IMG/VR virus record: IMGVR_UViG_2873063797_000002 | From: a virus | Lineage: Duplodnaviria; Caudoviricetes | Strand: one strand, 5' to 3' | Length of the DNA: 64,000 nt | In this document: positions 1 to 64,000 of the stretch, one piece after another | Layout: every line of letters starts with the position of its first letter | Numbering within the stretch: the stretch's first letter is position 1 | The notes under the pieces: generated by a model | Database searches by the model: none | What the model was told of the DNA's origin: nothing | Seen by the model: the letters and a program-made list of their open reading frames with translations, nothing else | Translations under genes and position numbers: made by a program

Positions 1-1
1 C

Positions 2-1519
2 GGCCCGGATGCCGGGGGCCGATGGAAGTTCACGCGAGAGCAAGCGCGAACGGTTATGCGCTGGTACGAGATAGACGACAGCGGCGCATTCGTCTACCGA
101 CAGGGAACCGTGCGGCGAATCAAGGGTGCCGGTAAGGACCCGTTCGCTGCTGCGCTGTGTGCCTTTGAGTTCGTCGGCCCGTGCCGTTTCGGCGGTTGGG
201 ATGACAGCGGGAATCCGGTTGGAATTCCTCACCCCGCCGCATGGGTTCAGGTCGCCGCTACTTCCAAGGATCAGGCGCAGAACACAATGGCGCTTTTCCC
301 TGGCATGTTCTCTAAGTCGGCCCTTATCGCGTACGGAATCGACCTCGGTAAGGAGATCATTTACAGCGGGACGGGTGGACGGATTGAAGCCGTTACCGCA
401 TCGGCCCGAGCGCTGGAAGGTCGCCGCGCCACTTTCACGCTGATGAACGAAACCCAACATTGGGTCAAGTCCAACGGCGGCCACGACATGGCAATGACCA
501 TTGCCGGAAACGTGGCTAAGTCTCGTGGTGGTGGTGCTCGCACACTGGAGATCACAAACGCCCCGTTGCCCGGTGAAGACTCGGTAGCGGAGCGCACGTT
601 TCACGCGTGGTCCAAGCTGCGCGATAAGGGTTCGGATATTCCCCGTCAGGCTGGCACCTATTACGACTCCGTAGAGGCTCCGGCATCAGTGGAGCTAGGC
701 AACCGGGAATCTCTCCGCGCTGGCATCATCGCTGCCCGAGGTGACGCCGATTGGCTAGACGTTGACTGGATCATTTCCACGATCTACAGCGGCACGTATC
801 CCGCGTACCAGTCCCGTCGAATGTTCCTCAATCAGCTAGTGACCGATGAGGATTCCCTCATTTCGCCGGTTGCTTGGGATGCCCTCGCAGTCTCGGACAG
901 CATCCAAGAGGGCGACCGAATCACGCTCGGGTTCGATGGTGGAAAGACCGACGACGCAACAGCCCTAATCGCCATGCGCGTAACAGACCGGCTGATTGAA
1001 CCGCTCGGCATTTGGGAGCGGCCGGACGGTCCCTCGGGTGAAGGGTGGGAAGTTCCCCGCGATCAGGTGGAGGACGCCGTACACCACGCGTTCGCGCGCT
1101 TCGACGTAGCGGCATTCTTCGCTGACCCCGTGCTATGGGAAGGGCACATTGCCCGCTGGTCCGAGGAGTACCGGGACCGATTCGCTGTACGGGCCTCTAC
1201 GGGCTCCGCAGTGGCCCGACGCATGGACGGCTCGGGCGGACAACAGCGGGAGCTGACAGACGCCAATGCGCGGCTTGTAGCGGCAATCGAGAATGGCCAC
1301 GTCCGGCACACCGGAAACCAGACGCTACGGCGTCACGTCATGAACGCTAAGCGCCGGATCAACCGGTACGGCGTCAGCTTCGGCAAGGAGAATCCCAACT
1401 CCCGCAAGAAGGTGGACGGTTACGCCGCTCTGTTGCTGGCAGACCTAGCGCGTACTCGACTGGCCGAGGCTGGAAAGCTGGAGGTTCCCAAGCGCGACGG
1501 TCGAATGTTCTTCGGATGA
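2..1519 (+). CDS. terL: Phage terminase large subunit (5'-partial)
   Basis: Frame open from position 2 (GPDAGGRWKFTREQ); LMNETQHW Walker B region; GFDGGKTDDATAL nuclease motif; KVDGYAALLLA C-terminal motif. Confidence 0.9.
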   Translation, partial: GPDAGGRWKFTREQARTVMRWYEIDDSGAFVYRQGTVRRIKGAGKDPFAAALCAFEFVGPCRFGGWDDSGNPVGIPHPAAWVQVAATSKDQAQNTMALFPGMFSKSALIAYGIDLGKEIIYSGTGGRIEAVTASARALEGRRATFTLMNETQHWVKSNGGHDMAMTIAGNVAKSRGGGARTLEITNAPLPGEDSVAERTFHAWSKLRDKGSDIPRQAGTYYDSVEAPASVELGNRESLRAGIIAARGDADWLDVDWIISTIYSGTYPAYQSRRMFLNQLVTDEDSLISPVAWDALAVSDSIQEGDRITLGFDGGKTDDATALIAMRVTDRLIEPLGIWERPDGPSGEGWEVPRDQVEDAVHHAFARFDVAAFFADPVLWEGHIARWSEEYRDRFAVRASTGSAVARRMDGSGGQQRELTDANARLVAAIENGHVRHTGNQTLRRHVMNAKRRINRYGVSFGKENPNSRKKVDGYAALLLADLARTRLAEAGKLEVPKRDGRMFFG

Positions 1520-1546
1520 CCTCCCCGTAACGTTACGGGGTGGTGT

Positions 1547-1587
1547 AACGCCCCTGATGGCTTCCCGCTGTCAGGGGCGTTTTCGTT
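1547..1587 (+). terminator. Rho-independent terminator after terL
   Basis: AACGCCCCTGA/TCAGGGGCGTT 11-bp inverted repeat followed by a T-rich tract. Confidence 0.75.
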
Positions 1588-1679
1588 GCCTTGGATTAAA
1601 AGGCGGGTATCCTCGCCGGCCGTGGGTGCTTGGGGGCCGACTTCCCAGCAATACCAAGGGTTTTCGGCACCTTCGATTC

Positions 1680-2696
1680 TTAGGCTGCTTCGACCGCTCG
1701 GCGCAAAGCGTCCTTGTGTTCCCACGACCAAGGGGCGTCGCGCAGTTCCTCGGGCAAGCCAGCGAGACCGGTCCTCAAATGGTCGGCCGCCTCGCTGTAT
1801 CTGCCGAGTGCGAGAGTGGCTAGCCCCATGTTCAGTCGGTTGAAACTCGGGGTGAGCCAATACGCGGTTGCCGGTGGCGGGAGCGCTGCGGCTTTATCCA
1901 TGAGCTTTTCCGCCTGCTCCACAGTCCGCAGCGCTGCGTCTGCGTCGCCCAACTCCGCGAGTCCGGCCGCTGATTGCAGGTAGTCACCGATTCGCTGTGC
2001 GGGGTGCGCGCCGGGGGTATTCGCCGCTGCACCGAACCAGCGGGCAATTCCTTGGGGTCGCCCCTGCTGTCGCGCAATGTAGCCCTTGAAATTGAGGGCC
2101 TGCGCGGCAAGGGTTCCGTTTCCTGTCTCGTCGGCAAGTTCCACGGCGTCATTCAAGAGCCGTACGCCGTCCTTGTATTCGCGCGTTTGTGCGAATAGCC
2201 ATCCTGCGAACTGGACCCATTCTGACGCTACGTCAGAAAGTCGGTCCCTTTGCGGGCCGCGCGCTTCCTTGAGCATCCGCGTAACCTCCCGCATTTGCGT
2301 CATGGTCGCCGGAATGACGCTGCGCGGGGGTGCTGTGTCGTCTAGGCGGCGGTATGCGGCCAGTACGCCAGCGAGAGCGTCAACGGTTCCGGCGTCCAGT
2401 CGAGAGGGATTCTCAGCGCTGCGTGCCACGCGTTCCGCGTCGTCCTCCCCGAGCAGTGTTCCGGCCAATGCGCCACCGGCACCAACGAGGGAATCCAGCG
2501 CGTGAGCGAGGTTTTCCGACGGGCGCTGTTTGCCGTTGAGGACACGCGAGAGGTATGCCGGGTCATAGTGCATTTCCCGTGCTGCGGCTTTCATCGAATA
2601 TCCGGCGTCGCGGAGTGCACGGCGGGCAAGGTCAGGGAAGTCGTCACGCATTGCGAACCTCTGGGGGTTGACCGGCTGTGCATCCAGATTAGTCAA
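1680..2696 (-). CDS. XRE-family HTH regulator with a helical/TPR-like C-terminus
   Basis: GYSMKAAAREMHYDPAYLSRVLNGKQRPS is a typical XRE HTH; resembles Streptomyces mobile-element regulators. Confidence 0.85.
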   Translation of the reverse strand: MTNLDAQPVNPQRFAMRDDFPDLARRALRDAGYSMKAAAREMHYDPAYLSRVLNGKQRPSENLAHALDSLVGAGGALAGTLLGEDDAERVARSAENPSRLDAGTVDALAGVLAAYRRLDDTAPPRSVIPATMTQMREVTRMLKEARGPQRDRLSDVASEWVQFAGWLFAQTREYKDGVRLLNDAVELADETGNGTLAAQALNFKGYIARQQGRPQGIARWFGAAANTPGAHPAQRIGDYLQSAAGLAELGDADAALRTVEQAEKLMDKAAALPPPATAYWLTPSFNRLNMGLATLALGRYSEAADHLRTGLAGLPEELRDAPWSWEHKDALRRAVEAA

Positions 2697-2744
2697 CCTC
2701 GGTCAACTCCCGCGTGACCATTGCAATTCCCGATCATGGTCCGC

Positions 2745-2942
2745 ATGACCAAGCCGAGGACGTACCCCACTGCGCCGGTTGAACTCCCCATGAGGGAAGC
2801 GGAGTTGGAGCCGGTGCCGGTCGAAGGCTGCGCAGGATGCGCCGAGTTGGACAAGGTCCGGGCCCGTGCGCGTGTGGTCAACGATCAGGCGACGATCACC
2901 GACGCCAATGTGTTGCTGCGACGGCACCCCGATGGTCACTGA
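2745..2942 (+). CDS. Small CxxC...RHP protein divergent from the XRE gene
   Basis: PVPVEGCAGCAEL...TDANVLLRRHP; homologous to 63788-64000. Confidence 0.65.
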   Translation: MTKPRTYPTAPVELPMREAELEPVPVEGCAGCAELDKVRARARVVNDQATITDANVLLRRHPDGH

Positions 2943-3129
2943 CAAGGACGTGGGCCAGCGGGTCAAGGACAGCGCGGGAAGGGTCGGCATCCTGCGCGCT
3001 GTACTCACCGATTGGGAGGACCCGGCCAAGCTGCCGCCGGACCGCCGCAAACAGACCCTCGCTTTCCTCTGGCCAGAGGGGGGCGGACGGGAGTGGACGG
3101 CCCCGCCTCGCGCTGTGGAGCGCATCTAG
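2932..3129 (+). CDS. Small hypothetical protein (SH3-like) of the XRE cassette
   Basis: ATG overlaps the upstream stop; VGQRVKDSAGRVGIL...GGREW. Confidence 0.6.
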   Translation: MVTDKDVGQRVKDSAGRVGILRAVLTDWEDPAKLPPDRRKQTLAFLWPEGGGREWTAPPRAVERI

Positions 3130-3503
3130 TTTCCGCAGGTCAGAGGTACTTCGGGGGGTGTACAACACGCCTCGGCGCGCTGGTAGCAGTCGACGTTCGT
3201 GCCCATCGCGACGTGCTCGCCCTGCCAGCGGTGCGAGGCCAGCTGGCGGCGCAGCAGCTCGGGCGCGTTCACCTTCACGACGATCTGGGAGTCGAAGCCG
3301 AGTCCCGTGTCGAGGTCCAGGTAGCTGTGCGTCTTGCGGGCGAAGCAGTACACGCACGCGTGCGTGCAGCCCCGGTACGGGTTCACGGTCCATTCGAACG
3401 GCATCCGCGAGGCGCCCGGCACCCGGTTGAGGATCGAGCGGGCCCGCACCTCGTGGAAGGTGATGCCGCGGAACTCGGGTGTGTCGGTTCTGTCATCTAA
3501 CAC
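3126..3503 (-). pseudogene. Internal fragment of a host Rv2578c-family radical SAM gene
   Basis: DTPEFRGITFHEVRARSILNRVPGASRMPFEWTVNPYRGCTHACVYCFAR with the CxxxCxxC motif; family-like sequence stops at YQRAE and is replaced by 14 unrelated codons; native N-terminus absent. Confidence 0.9.
3130..3175. other. Putative att junction of the left element
   Basis: Host-like codons end at CAG CGC GCC GAG G (minus strand, 3170); the sequence beyond is non-homologous. Confidence 0.7.
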
Positions 3504-3528: not shown

Positions 3529-5061
3529 ATGACGCCAACTGACGTCCCAGCGACGTCCCGCCCGCGGAAGCGTGCGAGCCTCTACGCCAGGCTGTCCGTC
3601 GCTGCCGACGCTGAGAACCTGTCACTCGACGGCATGATCCGCGACATGCGCGCACTGTGTGACCGTGAGGGCTTCGAAGAGGTTGCCCTACACATCGACG
3701 ATGGTAGGTCGGGTGGACGCCGGGACAGGGACGAATTCCAAGCCTGGCTGAACGACGCACGCACAGGCGCCTGCGACGTCCTCGTCAACCCTGTGACCGA
3801 CCGGCTCACCCGTGAGGGCCTGAACGTCGCAGCGACGATTCTGGACGTCGTGGAGGGCAAGGACCCGGCAACCGGCAGGCTCGCACACCCGCCTGTACGG
3901 CTCATCGACTGCAACGGGCTCGACAGCTTGCACGGTGACGCGTTCCGCTTCCGCTTCGTCATTCAAGCGGAGGTGGGACGGGCGGAGCGGGAACGTATCC
4001 GGTCCCGCTCCCGAAAGCGGGCACGCAACCTCCGTCGCGCCGGCCGATGGGGAGGTGGGACGCCGCCCTTCGGGTACAGGGCGATAGCCAACCCTGACGG
4101 ACCTGGCTGGGTGCTCGACGTGGAGCCGAAAGAAGCGAAAGCCGTACAGGAGGCGGCAGAGGCGGTTCTGAAGAATCCCCCGGACCCGCTGACGCGTGTT
4201 GTACGGCGACTGAATCATCAGGGCGTGCCGCCTCGTCGAGCAAAGGCATGGTCCCGTGTGACGCTGAAGAGGGTGCTCACGGGGGACCACATCTTGGGAC
4301 GCGTCAGTCAGAACGGACGCCTTTTGCGCGACGAGGAGGGGGAAATCCTGGCGCCGTTTCCGGCGGTTCTCTCCCTTAGCCAGGTATCCGCATTGCGCGA
4401 CCGGCTGAAGCCGAAAGGCGGGACGTCGAACGGCGGAGGACATCCCGCGCGGGTGCTTTCCGGCCTTCTCTCTTGCCATTCCTGTCTGTCTGACCTCATC
4501 GTCCATCATGCATCAGTGCGCACGCGTGACGGAAAGCAGAAGGTAGAAGGGAAGCCGCCGAGAGTCTCCTACCGATGCGAGTCGCGAAGCCAGGGCAGGG
4601 TGTGCGAGCAACCCGTGACGGTAACTGCCGGCCCCATTGAGGAATTCGTCGTCAGGCTGTACCTGGACACCGTCGGCAGCTTCCCCATGTACAAGGAGCG
4701 GACGATCGTCTCCGGACTGGAAGAGTTGGCGTCGGTGGAGGAGGAGATCAAGGAAGCGTTGGCGGACCTGGCCACGGCTGCGGACGCAGAGACGTTCGCC
4801 AGGCTGCAGAAGCTCCAGGCACGTCAGGCAGAGCTGTCGACCCGGGACACCGGCCGTCGGTCGGAGATGGTGGCGACGGGCCAGACCATGGCGGAGTTCT
4901 GGGAGGGCGCGCTCATCGACGATCGCCGGGAGCTACTGGAGAGCGCGTTCGATGAACTGATCGTCGGCCCTGGGCGACGGGGGCCGAAGGGGTTCGACCC
5001 CGAGAGGCTCTCGTACCGATGGGCCGAGCGGGACGATGTGGCCTTCCAGGAGAGCATTTAG
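3529..5061 (+). CDS. int: Large serine integrase/recombinase
   Basis: ASLYARLS catalytic Ser motif, DRLTR, recombinase domain, CHSC...CES...C zinc ribbon and coiled coil. Confidence 0.95.
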   Translation: MTPTDVPATSRPRKRASLYARLSVAADAENLSLDGMIRDMRALCDREGFEEVALHIDDGRSGGRRDRDEFQAWLNDARTGACDVLVNPVTDRLTREGLNVAATILDVVEGKDPATGRLAHPPVRLIDCNGLDSLHGDAFRFRFVIQAEVGRAERERIRSRSRKRARNLRRAGRWGGGTPPFGYRAIANPDGPGWVLDVEPKEAKAVQEAAEAVLKNPPDPLTRVVRRLNHQGVPPRRAKAWSRVTLKRVLTGDHILGRVSQNGRLLRDEEGEILAPFPAVLSLSQVSALRDRLKPKGGTSNGGGHPARVLSGLLSCHSCLSDLIVHHASVRTRDGKQKVEGKPPRVSYRCESRSQGRVCEQPVTVTAGPIEEFVVRLYLDTVGSFPMYKERTIVSGLEELASVEEEIKEALADLATAADAETFARLQKLQARQAELSTRDTGRRSEMVATGQTMAEFWEGALIDDRRELLESAFDELIVGPGRRGPKGFDPERLSYRWAERDDVAFQESI

Positions 5062-5758: not shown

Positions 5759-5831
5759 TCCCCGCTGGTGTAACCGGCAACACGCCCGCCTCTGGAGTGG
5801 GTAGCTACAGGTTCGAATCCTGTGCGGGGAG
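5759..5831 (+). tRNA. tRNA-Gln(CTG)
   Basis: TCCCCGC/GCGGGGA acceptor stem; CCCGC-CTCTGGA-GTGGG anticodon arm; GGTTCGAATCC T arm. Confidence 0.85.
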
Positions 5832-5881
5832 CTGGGGGCGTCCCGTGCGTGACTGATCAGCACGCGCCCGAACGTAGCTGT

Positions 5882-5952
5882 GCGTGGATAGCTCAGTGGC
5901 CGAGAGCACCCGACGCAATCGGGGGACGCGGGTTCAAATCCCGCTCCAATGA
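5882..5952 (+). tRNA. Degenerate tRNA-Cys(GCA)-like gene (possible pseudo-tRNA)
   Basis: Good D and T arms; anticodon loop ACGCAAT lacks U33; acceptor stem needs a bulge to pair. Confidence 0.55.
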
Positions 5953-5992
5953 CGTGCAGCGCTTTCCGACGGCGGGACCCGGACAGCACCCC

Positions 5993-6066
5993 GCCCGCGT
6001 AGGCAAACTGGCAAAGCCGCCCGGTTCAGGCCCGGGAGTCTGGGAGTTCGACTCTCCCCGTGGGTA
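5993..6066 (+). tRNA. tRNA-Leu(CAG) with a short variable loop
   Basis: GCCCGCG/CGTGGGT acceptor stem; CCCGG-TTCAGGC-CCGGG anticodon arm; GGGAG-TTCGACT-CTCCC T arm. Confidence 0.8.
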
Positions 6067-6077
6067 CAGGCAGTCTC

Positions 6078-6149
6078 CGGGACGTAGCCAAGAGGTAAGG
6101 CGCCCGCTTTGGGAGCGGGAGAGCGCGTGTTCGATCCACGCCGTCCCGA
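6078..6149 (+). tRNA. tRNA-Pro(TGG)
   Basis: CGGGACG/CGTCCCG acceptor stem; CCCGC-TTTGGGA-GCGGG anticodon arm. Confidence 0.88.
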
Positions 6150-6156
6150 CACAGCC

Positions 6157-6337: not shown

Positions 6338-6973
6338 TCAGGAGGACGGCAGCTCCACGACGAAAGCCGCTTCCGCGTTCGGATCGTCCGTCCCCGTGTA
6401 GCTGACGGTCCCGCCCTTGGCGGCGACGTCGAGCACCACCTTCCCCGTGACGGACTGACCAGGCTTGTACGTCGTATCCAGGTCCGGACCCTCTCCGACG
6501 CCCTCCAGCGTCGTGGCGTCCTGCGCGGCGTGCTCGGCGTCCTGCCACTCCAGCATCCCGTAGAGCATGACGTCCGCGGGGGCCTGGCCCACGTTCTTCA
6601 GCGTCAACGTCAGCTCCACGTACTGACCGTGCTCCGGCTCGTTCGTCGTGTCGACCTCCGCCGGCGTCACGTACTTCGCACTGACGACAGTGACGGACAT
6701 CTTCGACGTGACCTTGTAGTTCTGGCCGTAGTCGTCCGTCTCGCCGTAGTCCCAAGTCTTCGTCTCACCGACCTTGACGACGGGCGCTTCAGCCGCAGGA
6801 GCGGACGAGGACGGCTCCTCCGACGGAGCATCCGCCGGCTCGACAGAGGCCTCCGCGGCAGGCTCGTTTTTCGACGCCTCCGCCCCGCCTCCGTCATCAG
6901 ACGAGCACCCCGCTACGAGGGCGAAGGACAGGACGACGGCTGGCACCACGGCACGGCGAATGTAGGCGCGCAT
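6338..6973 (-). CDS. Lipoprotein (DUF4352-like), candidate superinfection-exclusion or lysogenic-conversion protein
   Basis: Signal peptide with LVAGC lipobox, PEA-rich linker and Ig-like beta domain. Confidence 0.75.
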   Translation of the reverse strand: MRAYIRRAVVPAVVLSFALVAGCSSDDGGGAEASKNEPAAEASVEPADAPSEEPSSSAPAAEAPVVKVGETKTWDYGETDDYGQNYKVTSKMSVTVVSAKYVTPAEVDTTNEPEHGQYVELTLTLKNVGQAPADVMLYGMLEWQDAEHAAQDATTLEGVGEGPDLDTTYKPGQSVTGKVVLDVAAKGGTVSYTGTDDPNAEAAFVVELPSS

Positions 6974-7057
6974 AGCGCATCCCCCCATGAATCAGTGGCC
7001 TCCCCTGGCCACGCGGAGCCCACAGCGTAAGGCACAGGCGTAGGACGAGGAGGCGCA

Positions 7058-7363
7058 ATGGCGTGGGAAGGAAGCACACGCAGAAGCCGACTCCCCGCGA
7101 ACTGGCCCTCACTTCGACGCCGTGTCCTGCGCAGGGACAAGGGCCTGTGTCAGATGCCCTTCTCTGACGGGCGCTTGTGTGGGGCAGAGGCCACAGACGT
7201 GGACCACATAGAGCCCGGTGACGACCACAGCATGGCCAACCTACAGGCGCTGTGCACGTGGTGCCACGCACGCAAGAGCGCCAGTGAAGGCGGCAAGGCA
7301 GCAGCCCTCACGCGCGTGCGTATGGACCGACCCAAGCCCACACACCCGGCCCTGGAGGACTAG
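7058..7363 (+). CDS. HNH endonuclease (packaging-associated, HK97 gp74-like)
   Basis: LCQ...LCGAEATDVDHI...NLQALCTWCHARK; located upstream of the terminase genes. Confidence 0.9.
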   Translation: MAWEGSTRRSRLPANWPSLRRRVLRRDKGLCQMPFSDGRLCGAEATDVDHIEPGDDHSMANLQALCTWCHARKSASEGGKAAALTRVRMDRPKPTHPALED

Positions 7364-7365
7364 GC

Positions 7366-7617
7366 ATGGCAGGCGCACACGTGGTGCTGGAGGAGGCAGA
7401 CGACACGGGCGAGCAAGGCGTCAGCATCACGCGAGTGATCGTCAACGGAATCGATGTTGGTCGGCTCGCGAAGGCACCGAAGATCAGCGTCGGCACAGAG
7501 CGACGCTGCACAACGGTGACGCTCACGCTCGTGCCCAGCCGCCTGGAGATCAGAGGCGAGCACGCTGACGGTGATCGTCGAGAGGCGCGCGCCGGCTTCG
7601 GTTCGAAGATCGACTAG
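7366..7617 (+). CDS. Small hypothetical protein
   Basis: RBS-coupled ORF directly after the HNH gene. Confidence 0.6.
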   Translation: MAGAHVVLEEADDTGEQGVSITRVIVNGIDVGRLAKAPKISVGTERRCTTVTLTLVPSRLEIRGEHADGDRREARAGFGSKID

Positions 7618-7619
7618 CC

Positions 7620-7861
7620 CCCGGGGCAGGGGGGTGATCCCCTCCCGGAAACCCTGAGCATCGTTAAGGTGCTGGGTCTCGCGCTCTGTACGGGTCTGGG
7701 GACCCAACGAGTCACACTTTCGCCCCATCGCGCGGGAGGGCGGCAGACGGCCGCACAGGGCTTCCTAGGGGCATCTGAGCCGCGCGGGGGCCGAGAAAGT
7801 GTGACGCGCCGGCCCTCTTCATCAACTACGTTTCCGCAGGTGGGAGGCTTGAAAGTGTGAC
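7620..7861. promoter_or_regulatory. Putative cos packaging region
   Basis: Non-coding gap after the HNH gene; three GTCACACTTT 10-mers (7711 +, 7796 -, 7852 -). Confidence 0.5.
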
Positions 7862-8516
7862 CGGCCGCCACTACGATAGAGACGTGCCCAAGACTTGCGA
7901 GCACTGCGCGAAGCCCCTGCCGATCATGGCCAGGCGGCATACGCGGTCGTGCTCGCCCCGGTGCCGAAAGGCACTGTCCCGCGCTGCCGCGAAGGCTGCG
8001 CGCTCGCTCCCCGTCGAGCTGACGTCCCGCGACAGGTGGGTACGTCGAGCCGGCGACAAGCGTCCGCTGACGACGACCGGCAGGGCCGCGTCAAGCACTG
8101 ACGCGAGCACGTGGAGCACCTACAAGAACGCCGCGGAGTCCGTGGCGGGCGTCGGGCTGGGCTTCGTCCTCTCCGACGCCGACGACGTGGTCTGTATCGA
8201 CCTCGACCACTGTCTCAACCCGCTCACCGGGCGACTTGCCCCGTGGGCGGCAGCCATCGTGCGCGACGCGGGCGCCACCTACGTAGAGGTGTCCCCGTCC
8301 GGCGATGGACTGCACATCTGGGGCCGCGCCCACGTCCGACAGGGACGGCGCATCCGACGCCCTGACGGAACGGCCGTGGAGATCTACGGGACCGGCCGGT
8401 ACATCGCAATGACGGGGCGCCGGCACGGTTCTAGCCCCTCTATCCTGGGGGACTTGTCCTCCCTCGTTGCCCGGCTGACGGCGCACCCGAAGATCCCGAC
8501 AGGGGACCACTCGTGA
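7857..8516 (+). CDS. Zn-finger plus stand-alone primase-polymerase (AEP/Prim-Pol-like) domain protein
   Basis: CEHC...CSPRC N-terminus; CIDLDHC, EVSPSGDGLH and EIYGTGRY motifs. Confidence 0.7.
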   Translation: MTGRHYDRDVPKTCEHCAKPLPIMARRHTRSCSPRCRKALSRAAAKAARSLPVELTSRDRWVRRAGDKRPLTTTGRAASSTDASTWSTYKNAAESVAGVGLGFVLSDADDVVCIDLDHCLNPLTGRLAPWAAAIVRDAGATYVEVSPSGDGLHIWGRAHVRQGRRIRRPDGTAVEIYGTGRYIAMTGRRHGSSPSILGDLSSLVARLTAHPKIPTGDHS

Positions 8517-8779
8517 CTGACCGCCCGAACCCGACGCTTCCTAGTGAGACCCTCCGGGCCGTACAGGAGCTGTCGCTGATCCTAATGGACCAGGTATCCG
8601 ACCCGGCCGTCGCCCGCCGCGTGGCGGAGTGCTTCGAGTTCCTTGACCAGCCTGGCGACATGCCGATGTCCGTCGGATGGTGGCGCCGTGCCGCCGACAT
8701 GGGCGACCGAGATGCGCGGGACTACCTCCGCGACCTGATTGACCAGGGGAAGGCCGAACGGCTCCCTGACGACGACTGA
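8513..8779 (+). CDS. Hypothetical protein
   Basis: GTGA overlap with the upstream gene. Confidence 0.55.
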   Translation: MTDRPNPTLPSETLRAVQELSLILMDQVSDPAVARRVAECFEFLDQPGDMPMSVGWWRRAADMGDRDARDYLRDLIDQGKAERLPDDD

Positions 8780-8835
8780 CGGCGTACCTCCCGACAGGGG
8801 ACGGCACGGCCGTTCCTTACCTGGGAGGTACCCCC

Positions 8836-9006
8836 ATGGATGACGAGGTCGTCCCCTACGAAGACGGCGGCATTCTCGCGCCGGTCACGTCGTGGGTCTC
8901 ATATCCCGAAGAAACATGCGTCCTCACCTTGGACCAGATGCGCGAGATGCTCGCGGCGTTTGACCCGTCGGAGCCGATCACCTTCATCCACGATCGGAAC
9001 TACTGA
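8836..9006 (+). CDS. Small hypothetical protein (56 aa)
   Basis: GGGAGG RBS; stop overlaps the terS ATG. Confidence 0.5.
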   Translation: MDDEVVPYEDGGILAPVTSWVSYPEETCVLTLDQMREMLAAFDPSEPITFIHDRNY

Positions 9007-9452
9007 TGGCCGGCCGCGGACCCGCCCCGAAGGACCCCGCGAAGCGGAGGCGCCGCAACGCCACTGAGCCGGAGACTGTCATCGCCAACGACGGTGAACT
9101 CCGCGGCCCCGACCTCCCGGAGGGCGTCCTCCCCGGTGACGAGGAGTGGCACCCCATGACGGTCAACTGGTGGCACACCTGGCGCACGTCGCCGATGGCT
9201 GCGACCTTCCTCGACACCGACTGGGCTTTCCTCCTCGATGCCGCCCTGATGCACCACACGGCGTGGACAAAGGGCAAGTGGGAGTTCCTCTCTGAAGTAC
9301 GCATGCGCTCCTCGAAGTTCGGCGCCACGCCAGAGGACCGCGCCCGCCTGAAGCTGAAGGTCGACGAGCCGCTGAGCGGCCGTCAGACGCCCGTTCAGCG
9401 CGCGGACAACGTCTCGGACATCAACTCGCGCAGAGCGCGTCTCACAGGCTAG
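9006..9452 (+). CDS. terS: Terminase small subunit
   Basis: MAGRGPAPK start; FGATPEDRARL motif; precedes terL. Confidence 0.85.
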   Translation: MAGRGPAPKDPAKRRRRNATEPETVIANDGELRGPDLPEGVLPGDEEWHPMTVNWWHTWRTSPMAATFLDTDWAFLLDAALMHHTAWTKGKWEFLSEVRMRSSKFGATPEDRARLKLKVDEPLSGRQTPVQRADNVSDINSRRARLTG

Positions 9453-9463
9453 GAGGGGGCTTC

Positions 9464-11173
9464 GTGCCGCACGTAACCGTGCGCGCCCCCGGTCACGATC
9501 GCTCCCGCTCGCTCGGGTGGATGGCGGTCGCGTGGATGGAGTACTTCGTCGTGCACGGCCCTGGCGACGTCCAGGGCGAGCCGGTGCGTCACGGAGACGA
9601 ATACACCGGCTTCGTCGTGGACTGCTACGCGGTCGACGAGCACGCCGGCAAGATGCTCTACGACTCCGCCTTCTTCTCCCGCCCCAAGGGCTGTGACAAG
9701 TCCGGCCTAGGCGCCCGCATCGGCCTCTTCGAAGCCTTCGGCCCCTCCCGCTTCGACGGCTGGGCTGAGGGCGGAGAGGTCTACCGCGACCCGTGGGGAC
9801 TGGGCTTCGAGTACGTCTACGAGCCTGGCGAGCCGATGGGCCGACCAGTCAAGGTCCCGTACCTCCGCATCATGGCGACGGAGGAAGGCCAGACCGGCAA
9901 CGTCTACGACACCATCCATTTCAACCTGACCGACGAGGCGTCGCCGCTGAGTCAAATCCCGGGAGTCGACCCGGGCCTTACCAAAATCAACCTCCCTGAC
10001 GGCGGGGAAATTACCCCGTCAACCGCTTCTTCCTCCTCGAAAGATGGCGGCAAGGAAACATGGGTCTGTTTCGACGAAACCCATCTCTATAACACGCCCG
10101 AACTTCGCCGTATGTACGCGACGGTTACCCGAAACCTCCGCAAGCGGAAGAAGGGTGCCGGAACGTGGTATCTGGAAACAACCACCATGTTCGCCCCCGG
10201 GCAAGACTCCGTCGCTGAGCGCACCTACGAGGAAGCCGAAGCCATCCGCGAGGGTAAGAAGAAGCGCGGTCGCGCTCGTCTTCTTTACGATCACCGCTAC
10301 GGCGTCTGCAAGAACCTGAAAGACGAGGCCGAACTACGCGCGGCCCTCATCGACTCCTACGGCGACGCCATGGAGTGGATGGACCTGGAGACGCTGGTCG
10401 ATGACTTCTACGACCTGCGTAACGACAGTGCCGACGGCAAGCGGTACTTCCTCAACTCCCGGACCTCCTCCAGCGACTCGTGGATGGAGCCGGACGCGTG
10501 GGAGGTCTGCCGCCGACCGGAGCCGCTCCAGGCCGGTGACCTCGTCACTCTTGGCTTCGACGGCTCCATTCGTGACGACGCCACGGCGCTCGTCGCCTGC
10601 CGTGTCTCTGACGGTCACCTCCAGCTCCTAGGAGTCTGGGAGAAGCCCGAAGGGCACGAAGGCGAAGGCTGGCAAGTCGACCGCGAAGCGGTAGACAACT
10701 GTGTTGCTCGCGCCTTTGACCGCTACGAGGTCTGCGGCTTCTACTGCGACCCGCCCCACTGGCAAGACTACGTGGACAAGTGGACGTCGGAGTACGCCGA
10801 AGGGCTCCAGATAAGCGCTGTGCAATCCCGCCCGCTGGAATGGTGGACGAACCGCCCCACGGCCATGGAACACGCGCTTGACCGCTTCGTCGAAGCCGTT
10901 GACGACAAAGCCCTCTCCTTCGCCGGCACCGCTAAGGCGGACGACGAAGAGGAATTCTCGCGGCTGGGCGCCACGCTCACCCGCCACGTCCTCAACGCCA
11001 AGCGCCGGCCGATGGGCCGAAATCACATGGGTATCGGCAAGGAGCACCCCAAAAGTCCGAAGAAAATCGACGCCGCTATGGCGGCAGTGCTCGCCTACGA
11101 ATGCCGCGCGGATGCGGTTGCCGCGGGCATCACGAAGCGCAAGAAAAAGACCGGTCGCCTAGTCGCCTTCTGA
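9464..11173 (+). CDS. terL: Terminase large subunit
   Basis: SRPKGCDKS Walker A; CFDETH Walker B; GFDGSIRDDATAL; KIDAAMAAVLA. Confidence 0.95.
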   Translation: MPHVTVRAPGHDRSRSLGWMAVAWMEYFVVHGPGDVQGEPVRHGDEYTGFVVDCYAVDEHAGKMLYDSAFFSRPKGCDKSGLGARIGLFEAFGPSRFDGWAEGGEVYRDPWGLGFEYVYEPGEPMGRPVKVPYLRIMATEEGQTGNVYDTIHFNLTDEASPLSQIPGVDPGLTKINLPDGGEITPSTASSSSKDGGKETWVCFDETHLYNTPELRRMYATVTRNLRKRKKGAGTWYLETTTMFAPGQDSVAERTYEEAEAIREGKKKRGRARLLYDHRYGVCKNLKDEAELRAALIDSYGDAMEWMDLETLVDDFYDLRNDSADGKRYFLNSRTSSSDSWMEPDAWEVCRRPEPLQAGDLVTLGFDGSIRDDATALVACRVSDGHLQLLGVWEKPEGHEGEGWQVDREAVDNCVARAFDRYEVCGFYCDPPHWQDYVDKWTSEYAEGLQISAVQSRPLEWWTNRPTAMEHALDRFVEAVDDKALSFAGTAKADDEEEFSRLGATLTRHVLNAKRRPMGRNHMGIGKEHPKSPKKIDAAMAAVLAYECRADAVAAGITKRKKKTGRLVAF

Positions 11174-11186
11174 GGGAGGTCCGTAA

Positions 11187-12713
11187 GTGCCTATCGATGC
11201 ATCGAAGGTGGAGTCTCCCGGATGGTGGCTTCAGCGCCTTGGTAAGAAGCTCCTCGACGAGCGGGAGGACGTCACCGACGCCAGCGGCGAGAAGACTCCG
11301 GGGCTCGACACCCTCCGGGACTTCGCCGAAGGTCGACCGCCCGTTCCGCACGTCCTGGGCGTCGACCCGCGCGAGGCGCGAGAGTGGATGAAGGACGCGC
11401 GTACCAACTGGACCGCGCTCGTCCTCGACTCCCCGACAGAGCGCATGCACGTCGATGGCTTCCGCTTCGGCGATCCCAACGACGACAGCGAAGACGCCCG
11501 CAAGGCGGACACCGAAGCCAACCGCATCTGGCAGGAGAACAGCCTCGACGCGGACGCGGACCTCATCCACTACGGCGCACTTTCCCAGCGACGGGCCTTC
11601 GCCCTCGTCGAGCAGGGCGACGAGGGACGTCCCGTCATCACGCACGAGACGCCCCGACAGGTGGCCGTGGAGCACGTCCAGGGTAGCCGGCGGAAGCTCG
11701 CTGCGGGCCTGAAGCTCTGGCGCGACGACTGGACCGGGAACACCCGGGCGACGCTCTGGACACCGGACCGGATTTACGACTTCGTCTCCAGATCGGACCT
11801 CGTGACCTTCTCCGGTCGCGCGGCAACTCTTCGCGGCTGGGATGCCCTTGTCCTCCCTGATCGTCCCGACGGTGAGCGACCCAACGACCTGGGCATGGTC
11901 CCGCTCGTCCCCTTCATCAACCGCCGTAACCGGCGTCTGACCGGCTTCGCTGAGCACGAGGACGTTCTCAGCATTCAGAATCGGATCAACCTCAGCCTGA
12001 TCAACCTCATGGCCGCGATGAAGTACGGCGCCTTCCGACAGCGCTGGGCGGCCGGCCTGGAGGTCGGGGAGGACCCGGTCACCGGGAGGGCGATCGAGCC
12101 CTTCCAGCTCGACATTCGCCGGCTCTGGACGACGGACGACCCCGAAGTGAAGTTCGGCGAGTTCGCCGCAACCGATCTCAAGCCCTACGTCGCAGCCGTG
12201 CAGGCGGCCGTGCAGGATCTCGCCGCTATCTCGCGGACGCCTCCGCACTACCTGATTGGTGCAGTCGTCAACGTCTCCGGCGACGCCCTGAAGGCCGCGG
12301 AAACGGGTCTGATCAGCAAGGTTCGGGACCGTCAGCGCTCCTTCGGCGAATCTTGGGAGCAAACCATGAGGCTGGCCTTCCGCGTCCTGGGCGACGAGGC
12401 GAAGGCGACGACCTTCACCGCTGAGACCCTCTGGCGTGACCCGGAATCCCGCAGCATCGCGGAGCTTGCCGACGCTGCCGTGAAAAAGAGCACTGCCGGC
12501 GTTCCGTGGCGTCAGCGCATGGAGGACATGGGTTACACCCCGGCGCAGATCTCCCGCATGGAGATCGACCGGGCGGCCGACGCGATGAATGCTCAGACAG
12601 CCGTCGACCCGACCATGCCGCCTCCGGCCTCACTTGACGACGCTCGCGCACGACGTGATCAGCGCCCGGTGATCGGACGAGAGGACGACGACGATGCCGC
12701 TAACGCCGCTTGA
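11187..12713 (+). CDS. Portal protein (SPP1 gp6-like)
   Basis: Position after terL; VPFINR, FAEHEDVLSIQNRIN and SGDALKAAETGL motifs. Confidence 0.92.
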   Translation: MPIDASKVESPGWWLQRLGKKLLDEREDVTDASGEKTPGLDTLRDFAEGRPPVPHVLGVDPREAREWMKDARTNWTALVLDSPTERMHVDGFRFGDPNDDSEDARKADTEANRIWQENSLDADADLIHYGALSQRRAFALVEQGDEGRPVITHETPRQVAVEHVQGSRRKLAAGLKLWRDDWTGNTRATLWTPDRIYDFVSRSDLVTFSGRAATLRGWDALVLPDRPDGERPNDLGMVPLVPFINRRNRRLTGFAEHEDVLSIQNRINLSLINLMAAMKYGAFRQRWAAGLEVGEDPVTGRAIEPFQLDIRRLWTTDDPEVKFGEFAATDLKPYVAAVQAAVQDLAAISRTPPHYLIGAVVNVSGDALKAAETGLISKVRDRQRSFGESWEQTMRLAFRVLGDEAKATTFTAETLWRDPESRSIAELADAAVKKSTAGVPWRQRMEDMGYTPAQISRMEIDRAADAMNAQTAVDPTMPPPASLDDARARRDQRPVIGREDDDDAANAA

Positions 12714-13503
12714 TCGGCGCTACGGCTCCGCGGTCCGAAGTATTTGGACGAGCGTCCTGGGAAGGACCAACCGGTCCTTCCTGGGGCTGGGCTCGTGGCG
12801 TGACGCGGACATGCGCCGCTTCCAGCGACAGGCTCTCCCCATCATCCTGGCCGGCGAACGCCAAGTAGCGACGCTGACGGCGTCCTACCTGGAACAGCTC
12901 TACAGGGACGAGGACCCCCGGGGCCGCCGTGCTCGGCTCGACCTTGACGCTGTGACGGGCCAGGCCCTCCGTGGCGTCGACCCTTCCGACGTCTACGAAC
13001 GGCCTTTCAAGGAACTGCGCGCCGCTTTGGGCGATGACGTCTCCCTCGACGAGGCCGTCAACCGGGGCGCTCACCGTCTCGAAACCCTCGTGAAGACGGA
13101 CCTGCAACTTGCTCGCACGCACACTGTTCGCGAAGTGTCGGCCGACATGCCGCGCTTCACGTACACCGTCCGTGAGCTGCAAGGGGAATACGACTGCGCC
13201 CTCTGCATCATCGCCTCCACGCAGCGCTACCACAAGCGCAACCTAGCCCCGATCCACCCCGGCTGTGACTGCCTCGTCAAGACGGTCACCGCCGACTACG
13301 ACCCGGGCCAGGTCATCGACGAGGAGACGCTAGAGCGGCTTCACGACCTCGTGGAGGAGGCCGTGGGCAAGGCGGACCGCGGAGGACGCGCGGTCGATTA
13401 CCGAAAGATCATCGTCGCCAACGATCACGGCGAGATGGGGCCCGTTCTGGGCTTCAAGGGCCAGCGATTCACCGGGCCCGACGACATCAACCTTCCGACC
13501 TGA
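12694..13503 (+). CDS. Head maturation/minor capsid (MuF-like) protein
   Basis: Position; CALC...IHPGCDC motif. Confidence 0.7.
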   Translation: MPLTPLDRRYGSAVRSIWTSVLGRTNRSFLGLGSWRDADMRRFQRQALPIILAGERQVATLTASYLEQLYRDEDPRGRRARLDLDAVTGQALRGVDPSDVYERPFKELRAALGDDVSLDEAVNRGAHRLETLVKTDLQLARTHTVREVSADMPRFTYTVRELQGEYDCALCIIASTQRYHKRNLAPIHPGCDCLVKTVTADYDPGQVIDEETLERLHDLVEEAVGKADRGGRAVDYRKIIVANDHGEMGPVLGFKGQRFTGPDDINLPT

Positions 13504-13543
13504 CGCCCGCCATGGGCCGACGACTCCCGACAGGGGATACCGC

Positions 13544-14176
13544 ATGCCTCGACGCACTCTCGCACGCCGTACCAACCTTCTGACCCTGGCGCACGAGCCG
13601 TGGACTCTCTACGAGGACGACCCGGGAGCCGGCGGGGGAGGTGGTGGAGGCGGCACGTCCGTCAACGAGCACGGGTACCCCGACGCGACCCCCGTCGCCG
13701 ACATGACGTCGGAACACCAGGTCGCCTACTGGAAGCACCACGCCCGCAAGCACGAGGCTGCGGCGAAGTCGGCCCCCGACGCTGCGGAGCTGGAGCGCCT
13801 CCGGGCCGCTGAGGCAGAGCTGAACACCCGCAGGGCCGCGGAGCTGAGCGAGACGGAGCGACTCCAGAAGGAGCGCGACGAAGCCGCCGCAGAAGCCGCT
13901 ACCGCGAAGGCGGAGCGCGACGCCGCAGCGCGCAAGGCACTCCTCCTCGAAGTCGCCGCGGACAAGGGTCTGACCCCCGCGCAGGCTGCGCGCCTCCAGG
14001 GCTCCACGAAGGAGGAGCTGGAGGCCGACGCCGACGCGCTGAAGGCGGAGTTCGGCTCGACCGGCGGACAGGGGACCCCCGTCCCTCGCTCTGGCGGCAA
14101 CCGGGGAGGCGACGTCGGCAACTCCGGCGGCGTGTCGACGGGTGCTGAGCGCTTCCGCCAGAAGCACGGCAAGTAA
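13544..14176 (+). CDS. Capsid scaffolding protein
   Basis: YWKHHARKHE motif; coiled coil; GSTKEELEADA. Confidence 0.85.
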   Translation: MPRRTLARRTNLLTLAHEPWTLYEDDPGAGGGGGGGGTSVNEHGYPDATPVADMTSEHQVAYWKHHARKHEAAAKSAPDAAELERLRAAEAELNTRRAAELSETERLQKERDEAAAEAATAKAERDAAARKALLLEVAADKGLTPAQAARLQGSTKEELEADADALKAEFGSTGGQGTPVPRSGGNRGGDVGNSGGVSTGAERFRQKHGK

Positions 14177-55544: not shown

Positions 55545-55619
55545 GCCCCGCATAGGCAAGCCCGACTACCCGGTACCCCCAGTGCCGGCGGGCGCGCGGT
55601 TCGAATCCGCGGCGGGGCA
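55545..55619 (+). ncRNA. tRNA-like RNA (75 nt; perfect acceptor and T arms, non-canonical D arm)
   Basis: GCCCCGC/GCGGGGC-A; CGCGG-TTCGAAT-CCGCG; CCGGTA-CCCCCAG-TGCCGG. Confidence 0.65.
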
Positions 55620-55654
55620 CTTCACAGACCTACCGACTCACTAAAGGAGCAACC

Positions 55655-63787: not shown

Positions 63788-64000
63788 ATGGCGTACGAGC
63801 GAACGCTTCAAGAGCCGATCTGCTTAAGCGATCCGCTGGAGTGGGGTCCGAAACCGGCGCCGGGGTGTGACGTGTGCGGGGCCCTCGCGAGTCAGTACGC
63901 GACGTTCAACAACCCGAGCAACCCCGAGTACAACCCGTCAAAGGCGACTGACGTTCTCGTCGAAATCGGCCGGCACCCGCACGGGGAGGGGCGCTCGTGA
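63788..64000 (+). CDS. Small CxxC...RHP protein, homolog of 2745-2942
   Basis: PKPAPGCDVCGAL...TDVLVEIGRHP. Confidence 0.65.
   Translation: MAYERTLQEPICLSDPLEWGPKPAPGCDVCGALASQYATFNNPSNPEYNPSKATDVLVEIGRHPHGEGRS

Follow-up and report, generated by a model that had tools for sequence, protein, structure and literature searches.

A radical SAM gene of Streptomyces ambofaciens ATCC 23877 is split at two intragenic sites by two mobile elements with different serine integrases

In Streptomyces ambofaciens ATCC 23877 (genome G000; chromosome, 8,303,940 bp), one host gene for a radical SAM protein is divided into three pieces by two mobile elements, which occupy two different sites within its coding sequence. 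The window, meaning the whole stretch of 64,000 nucleotides that was analysed, corresponds to G000:C1:6586304-6650303; it holds the middle piece of the gene, the right-hand end of one element and most of the other, the prophage Samy. The two insertions in this orthologue of SCO6481/SAM40697_5543 were, we conclude, independent events, and very probably they represent the collateral inactivation of a dispensable gene and not a regulatory device.

The open reading frame at window 3126-3503 (minus strand) begins with a phage-derived GTG, continues through DTPEFRG...CTHACVYC...CYQRAE and runs out into unrelated sequence. Its 105 host-like codons (window 3170-3486, minus strand) are the middle piece of a gene of the Rv2578c family. 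This host-like core is 96% identical to residues 39-144 of an intact orthologue (L002:874-1929, minus strand; 352 aa); against single-copy genes from the genus, its identity is 90-97%. With the intact orthologue as reference, tblastn was then run on the whole G000 genome. Exactly three pieces were found, which are collinear, free of stop codons and all on the minus strand; the same whole-genome search gave no further copy of the gene. The 5′ piece (aa 1-49; C1:6650946-6650824, window-equivalent 64521-64643) lies outside the window, about 550 bp past its end. The middle piece (aa 39-144) lies at C1:6589788-6589471 (window 3168-3485), and the 3′ piece (aa 140-352) lies at C1:6579512-6578829, 6.8 kb to the left of the window start. 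The residues shared by neighbouring matches show where each crossover took place.

The crossover region of the right element (site A) contains a 12-bp core, TCGGGTGTGTCG (CGACACACCCGA on the gene strand), at window 3475-3486. This core is the Samy att repeat and is present at both ends of the right element; it recurs at C1:6650846-6650857 (window-equivalent 64543-64554). For the left element (site C), the crossover region contains a 6-bp core, CCGAGG on the gene strand, at window 3170-3175, and this is repeated at both ends of the left element, with the second copy at C1:6579500-6579505. The two cores are spaced exactly 305 bp apart. The gene piece of this length that they delimit (window 3170-3474, minus strand) runs from the end of codon 34 to the start of codon 136 and includes the CxxxCxxC motif (CTHACVYC, codons 70-77 of the rejoined protein). 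All pieces are in frame, and when they were joined in silico at the repeated cores, an intact ORF of 359 aa was obtained. The rejoined protein is 81-86% identical over its full length to five orthologues, and its breaks fall at codons 30-34 (Samy) and 134-136 (left element). At window 3487-3503 (minus strand), the Samy end places an in-frame GTG and then a TTA codon ahead of the middle piece. The resulting 125-aa ORF could at most give a truncated, non-functional fragment.

These results bear out the original prediction that one host gene is interrupted twice, by two elements at two intragenic sites. It had described about 105 host-like codons with foreign sequence on both sides, in agreement with the orthologue match and the element repeats; a serine integrase about 40 bp to the right, which starts 42 bp to the right; and a second element directly to the left, which ends at window 3169. 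The missing 5′ part was expected beyond position 64000 and the 3′ part to the left of the left element, and tblastn located both there. The two attB sites are distinct, as proposed, but the proposed spacing of about 315 bp has to be corrected to the 305 bp between the cores. Flanks without the complementary pieces, or an intact copy elsewhere with the fragment as phage cargo, had been named as grounds for rejecting the idea; both were examined, and neither was found.

We propose that two different large serine recombinases carried out the insertions, each at a short target of its own in the coding sequence. Samy (61 kb) would have recombined at codons 30-34, and the 9.97-kb left element, with its phiK38-1-like integrase, would have recombined at codons 134-136; for the left element, we infer this crossover mechanism. 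Since serine integrases cut and rejoin DNA without loss of sequence, the gene pieces would remain collinear and in frame, and exact reversal of both insertions would restore the 359-aa ORF. Conserved coding sequence provides good and widespread attB sites, so different elements would converge on one gene.

The family of the split gene was assigned by scanning the intact orthologue; the G000 protein exists only as a join. The orthologue scored 529 bits against NCBIfam NF038135 ('Rv2578c family radical SAM protein'; cutoff, 430), which upholds the predicted placement in the Rv2578c family with a distant likeness to SplB. The middle fragment alone gave a sub-threshold match to the start of the Pfam Radical_SAM domain (21.3 bits; cutoff, 29.5). 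No SplB model was among the NCBIfam matches of the orthologue at E 1e-5, and the published comparison with SplB gives 17.6% identity and an RMSD above 4 Å and advises caution (PMC12924846). The target gene of Samy has been described as the SAM40697_5543/SCO6481 orthologue of the Rv2578c family, and its inactivation had no fitness cost in vitro (PMC11302927, PMC12924846). The gene is probably dispensable, judging by these in-vitro data of others together with its loss in the genome comparison described below.

The prophage Samy forms the right element: its repeat TCGGGTGTGTCG, its coordinates 6,589,778-6,650,857, the 305-bp spacer and the length of the host chromosome all match the published prophage (PMC11302927, PMC12924846), whose att-int system was described by Jaffal et al. 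2024 (PMC11302927) and Delhaye et al. 2026 (PMC12924846). The prophage (61.07 kb, plus strand) occupies window 3475-64000 and runs 554 bp beyond the window end, as defined by the core repeats, by TerS, TerL and portal genes in canonical order and by the published description (PMC11302927). Its large serine integrase, SAMYPH_94 (510 aa; window 3529-5061, plus strand), has coordinates identical to those in S1 Data of PMC11302927 and contains all three domains of large serine recombinases, namely Resolvase (PF00239), Recombinase (PF07508) and Zn_ribbon_recom (PF13408). ARAGORN predicted four tRNA genes in Samy, three (Gln, Leu and Pro) at window 5759-6150 (plus strand) and the fourth (Gly) at window 55545-55620. 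The Samy integrase inserts into the SCO6481-type gene in six species (PMC11302927, PMC12924846). Samy is expressed and produced on stress media, its excision accompanies virion production, and the authors propose that it kills part of the colony (PMC11302927, PMC12924846). In the sister strain DSM 40697 (99% ANI), the gene is intact and neither element is present (PMC11302927).

The left element has been published as a 'remnant integrative element', about 10 kb in size and equipped with a second serine integrase (PMC11302927). By junction mapping, it comprises 9,973 bp (C1:6579500-6589472, window-equivalent -6803 to 3169); its right-hand 3.2 kb lies at window 1-3169 (plus strand), where we recognised its genes with Pfam and PHROGs and followed the naming in PMC11302927. 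At the outer junction it has a 551-aa serine recombinase, followed by a conserved non-coding stretch of about 650 bp, two small ORFs (one with a zinc ribbon, the other of about 62 aa) and then a head-tail adaptor, a 194-aa protein, a portal of the SPP1 type, a VG15/protease-like protein, TerS and TerL; an oppositely oriented XRE-TPR regulator and further small ORFs complete the element. The window contains the C-terminal 505 of the 540 aa of TerL (1-1519, plus strand, starting 104 bp before the window; PHROG 9, E 1e-67), the regulator with XRE-type HTH and TPR domains (1680-2696, minus strand; Pfam HTH_31 and TPR_12) and, at the att-proximal end, a 73-aa ORF taken from the ORF list (2721-2942, plus strand). 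In the related loci L030, L031 and L033, the regulator is kept at 83-97%, and homologues of the 73-aa ORF (58-66%) are in the same position. A tblastn comparison at E 0.01 gave no match between this ORF and the right end of Samy. No ORF of the left element had a Pfam or PHROGs match to capsid, tail, lysis or replication genes, no recombination directionality factor was recognisable in the element, and the 194-aa protein had no convincing Atlas match. The ORFs o130 and o162 were rejected as genes because stops are present in other copies of the element. The left element is also neither a near-duplicate nor a derivative of Samy, given identities of 31% for TerL, 28% for portal and 26% for integrase; its packaging proteins as a group are 25-31% identical to those of Samy. 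The non-coding stretch after the integrase (about 650 bp within L007:7200-8100, which is G000:C1:6581200-6582100) is about 80% conserved and contains the invariant blocks TCAGAATCAACACTCA and TAACCCCAGGTCAGA. It had no Rfam family at E 0.1, and it could serve in packaging, as an origin or in regulation.

The left integrase appears intact, judged by its full-length similarity to the phiK38-1 integrase: the two are 51% identical and collinear over their full length, and the N-terminal CRKS motif is kept. Pfam at E 0.01 gave only PF07508 and did not detect the N-terminal resolvase domain; PHROG 95 (integrase) covers residues 18-543, and the C-terminal domain aligns to structures of phiC31 integrase. 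In the reconstructed left attP, an imperfect inverted repeat, GTGTGCAAC / GTTGTACAC, flanks the core, as is typical of the attP of serine integrases. The integrase of phiK38-1 (AB251919.1) is the closest characterised relative, and its attP, beside int, also bears an imperfect palindrome. However, the attP sequences of phiK38-1 and the left element are unlike, and the attB of phiK38-1 is in another gene, SAV1570/SCO1148; this rules out the phiK38-1 attB as the site used here. We found no report of excision of the left element in the literature.

In published RNA-seq counts for the non-inducing medium MP5, the left element transcribes its integrase and regulator, with its structural genes silent (0-5 reads) (PMC11302927). 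The left integrase (C1:6579554-6581200) has 93-1279 reads, the XRE-TPR regulator 131-323 and the Samy integrase 652-2494, and each integrase is among the most transcribed genes of its element (PMC11302927). Such high integrase transcription in both elements is unusual for repressed prophages.

Relatives of the left TerL (88-97% identity) were found in G168, G319 and Streptomyces sp. NRRL WC-3549, NPDC102402 and NPDC005876. At least five full-length copies of the element are present, in different species and at different loci: L007:5545-15470 (G000:C1:6579545-6589470), L027, L028, L031 and L033. The G168 and G319 copies have an identical gene order and are 76-80% identical in nucleotides to the G000 copy. 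The full copies share an unusual order in which the adaptor, a protein of 190 aa, the portal and the protease stand ahead of TerS and TerL. Each copy forms, or lies within, a low-GC3 block of about 9.5-10 kb with host genes on both sides, and each has a serine integrase before it and a small opposite-strand regulator after it; four integrase lineages are represented in the family. The copy of WC-3549 is listed in IMG/VR as an 8.3-kb viral region, and at a related phage-like locus in G338, TerS, TerL and portal follow one another in the usual way. None of the core ORFs is disrupted, and dN/dS is 0.10-0.18 at dS 0.7-1.0 for the adaptor, the portal, the protease-like protein and TerL. These values indicate purifying selection on the compact family, which could partly be a legacy of a phage ancestor.

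The same compact architecture, at different loci and with different integrases, is unlike independent decay; thus the compact form would be the unit that spreads. We regard the chances as even that the left element is no random remnant but belongs, at full length, to a conserved family of compact elements and is possibly a helper-dependent satellite. More tentatively, the element may be live and belong to an undescribed family of Streptomyces satellites, which would combine a portal-vertex and packaging kit with interchangeable serine integrases. Such a satellite would put its own portal and motor into the capsid shell of a helper and borrow the helper's tail, and in ATCC 23877 the satellite and its possible helper, Samy, would have one target gene in common. 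Like known satellites, the element is compact, with an integrase and a regulator and without most phage functions. MulchRoom, MiniFlayer and the capsid-forming PICIs (cf-PICIs) are likewise small, encode their own TerS, TerL, portal and head-tail adaptor and have no replication module (PMC10690885; bioRxiv 10.1101/2022.09.08.507074), and MulchRoom has an integrase and a GntR-type HTH regulator, as do the G168 and G319 copies. In contrast, those satellites encode a major capsid protein and a scaffold, which are not recognisable in the compact family: a major capsid protein of its own, as in cf-PICIs, was sought with Pfam and PHROGs, and no ORF gave a capsid match. The integrase of the compact family is a large serine recombinase, whereas those satellites have tyrosine integrases, and the placement of adaptor, portal and protease before TerS and TerL is unusual in comparison with them. 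A Samy-like prophage alongside the compact element was not seen in G168 or G319, and G168 had no Samy-like terminase.

The strongest rival is the published view that the left element is a dead prophage remnant; it would then be immobile, and the gene would be permanently inactivated whatever Samy does. We give this view a substantial chance, somewhat short of even. The element has just 10 kb and is devoid of capsid, tail, lysis and replication genes and of a recognisable directionality factor, its structural genes are silent in MP5 medium, and the 4.1-kb internal deletion in its close relative L030 demonstrates that decay occurs. Against it stand the five full-length copies of one architecture and size, at different loci and with four integrase lineages, and the intact core ORFs with their low dN/dS. 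The element identity in L030, which exceeds that of the host flanks, suggests recent transfer, and the combination of integrase on, regulator on and late genes off, as seen in MP5 medium, is the pattern of a repressed live element.

The insertion sites were mapped across the genus by comparing the intact orthologue with 401 genomes, one per species, and inspecting partial matches singly; the unpublished genome G138 is counted in the tallies only, and no claim is based on it. A match was found in 375 of the 401 genomes, and about 350 have one full-length, uninterrupted gene. In 26 genomes there is no match, and at least seven others hold just decayed scraps; the gene is decayed or was not found in roughly 9%. 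Three intragenic sites recur: site A (codons 30-34), site B (in the CxxxCxxC motif) and site C (codons 134-136). The integration hotspot that had been predicted from two sites is borne out by these recurrent splits and has a third site as well. Site A is occupied in G000 only. Site B lies within GCGTGCGTGTACTGC, which codes for the last two cysteines of CxxxCxxC (codons about 73-77; window about 3349-3363, minus strand), and the gene is split there in G011, G080, G114, G188, G210, G260, G266, G272 and G389, and probably in G341 too. Site C is split in G000, G099, G230 and G319 of the survey and in L030 outside it. Double occupancy was found in one of the 401 genomes, G000.

Serine integrases adjoin the site B junction in G188, G272, G080, G389, G011 and G260, and belong to at least two lineages, with 26-30% identity between them. 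The site B elements (L011-L020, L022 and L023) range from 3 to 38 kb, and four have the end sequence TCACTGCATGACCCTATTGAGCCC in common. G260 was considered as a second case of site A, but it is a site B insertion with a 22-codon deletion. NF038136, the model for intein-containing Rv2578c proteins, aligns residues 85-323 of the intact orthologue (L002:874-1929, minus strand) to model positions 335-573; from these profile coordinates, the intein may sit just before the last Cys of CxxxCxxC, in the same few bases as site B.

At site C, G319, G230, G099 and L030 share a common junction and related element arms (AGTGTnCAAC...CCGAGG), and in G230 an integrase of 81% identity is at the junction. The left element is not conserved whole at this site: G230 has just the integrase in common with it, and the 26-kb insert of G319 has other content. 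L030 (Streptomyces sp. NPDC005876, NZ_JBEXWM010000013.1, 6805-13949) has a G000-type integrase (99.3% identity) at site C; its gene contains the left-type element alone, with the 4.1-kb internal deletion, and no Samy insertion. The L030 element is 92-94% identical to that of G000 and the host flanks are 81-85% identical, a difference that suggests recent horizontal spread. Among the inserts in the gene, two were seen to carry metabolic cargo in place of phage genes, namely a B12-binding radical SAM enzyme (L012:6095-8170, in G114) and a haem-oxygenase-like enzyme (L010:10195-11634, in G319).

The original prediction had further read the split gene as an AND gate, that is, a two-key form of active lysogeny in which the radical SAM enzyme is made only after both elements are excised during development or stress. 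Active lysogeny or developmental excision is known from skin/sigK and SPbeta/spsM of B. subtilis, phi10403S/comK of Listeria and the cyanobacterial fdxN/XisF system. The present case resembles these in having a serine-recombinase element within a coding sequence and a precise excision that would restore the gene. Both integrases match the XisF model, but weakly and far below its cutoff. All three pieces remain intact in a common frame, precise removal of both elements in silico rebuilds the 359-aa ORF, and both integrases appear intact from their sequences and are transcribed in MP5 medium. HT, a medium that promotes sporulation, induces Samy, and sigF is up there; basal excision has been reported for Samy-based vectors. 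We nevertheless consider a switch very improbable. Those systems keep the gene interrupted as a conserved state and excise the element by programme, whereas the state of ATCC 23877 is strain-specific and recent, with no known programmed excision: DSM 40697 has neither element, double occupancy is confined to one genome, the gene is uninterrupted in about 350 of the 401, and each element is found elsewhere without the other, the left-type one in L030. Since the insertions are recent, the intact pieces can be explained without selection. The gene has been lost or has decayed in several lineages, and no fitness effect of its inactivation has been reported. Samy expression is coupled to virion production, with cell death proposed, and an intragenic attB is the rule among Streptomyces phages with serine integrases. 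The AND gate is unsupported in view of the sister strain, the single doubly occupied genome and Samy excision accompanying virion production, and so is the suggested coupling to DNA repair or sporulation, in view of the decay or absence of the gene in roughly 9% of the genomes and the weak link to SplB (PMC12924846). The weakest alternative, that the fragment is phage-carried cargo or a scrap of a duplicated gene and not part of a split host gene, has nothing in its favour except the position between two mobile elements, and it is virtually eliminated by the matching 5′ and 3′ parts, which adjoin the far ends of the two elements in frame and with the same orientation, by the three collinear pieces with no other copy and by the presence of the 305 bp in the element-free sister strain.

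The layout is largely published: both elements, both serine integrases, the 305-bp stretch and the term 'hotspot' have all been reported (PMC11302927, PMC12924846). The 305 bp at 6,589,473-6,589,777 were termed an intergenic region that is present in both strains (PMC11302927), and another integrative element was noted a few hundred bp upstream of Samy-attB, in a region termed a hotspot (PMC12924846). Neither paper says that the other element interrupts the Samy target ORF at an attB of its own, and neither gives a genus-wide map of the three sites; both are new here. The re-reading of the 'remnant' as a member of a conserved compact element family is also new, and we hold it at evenly balanced confidence.

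What was published as a '305-bp intergenic region' is in fact the centre of a gene, and the double occupancy of that gene is a by-product of serine integrases targeting conserved coding sequence, which carries little weight for the question of a switch. In ATCC 23877 there are thus two natural attB sites, orthogonal and 305 bp from each other, with a third available elsewhere in the genus in the CxxxCxxC motif; these sites are served by different integrases, which are candidates for new integration tools. The 'remnant' may be a new compact helper-dependent element, and its candidate helper, Samy, is inducible in the laboratory. The radical SAM gene itself is a clear case of several integrase lineages converging on one conserved ORF.
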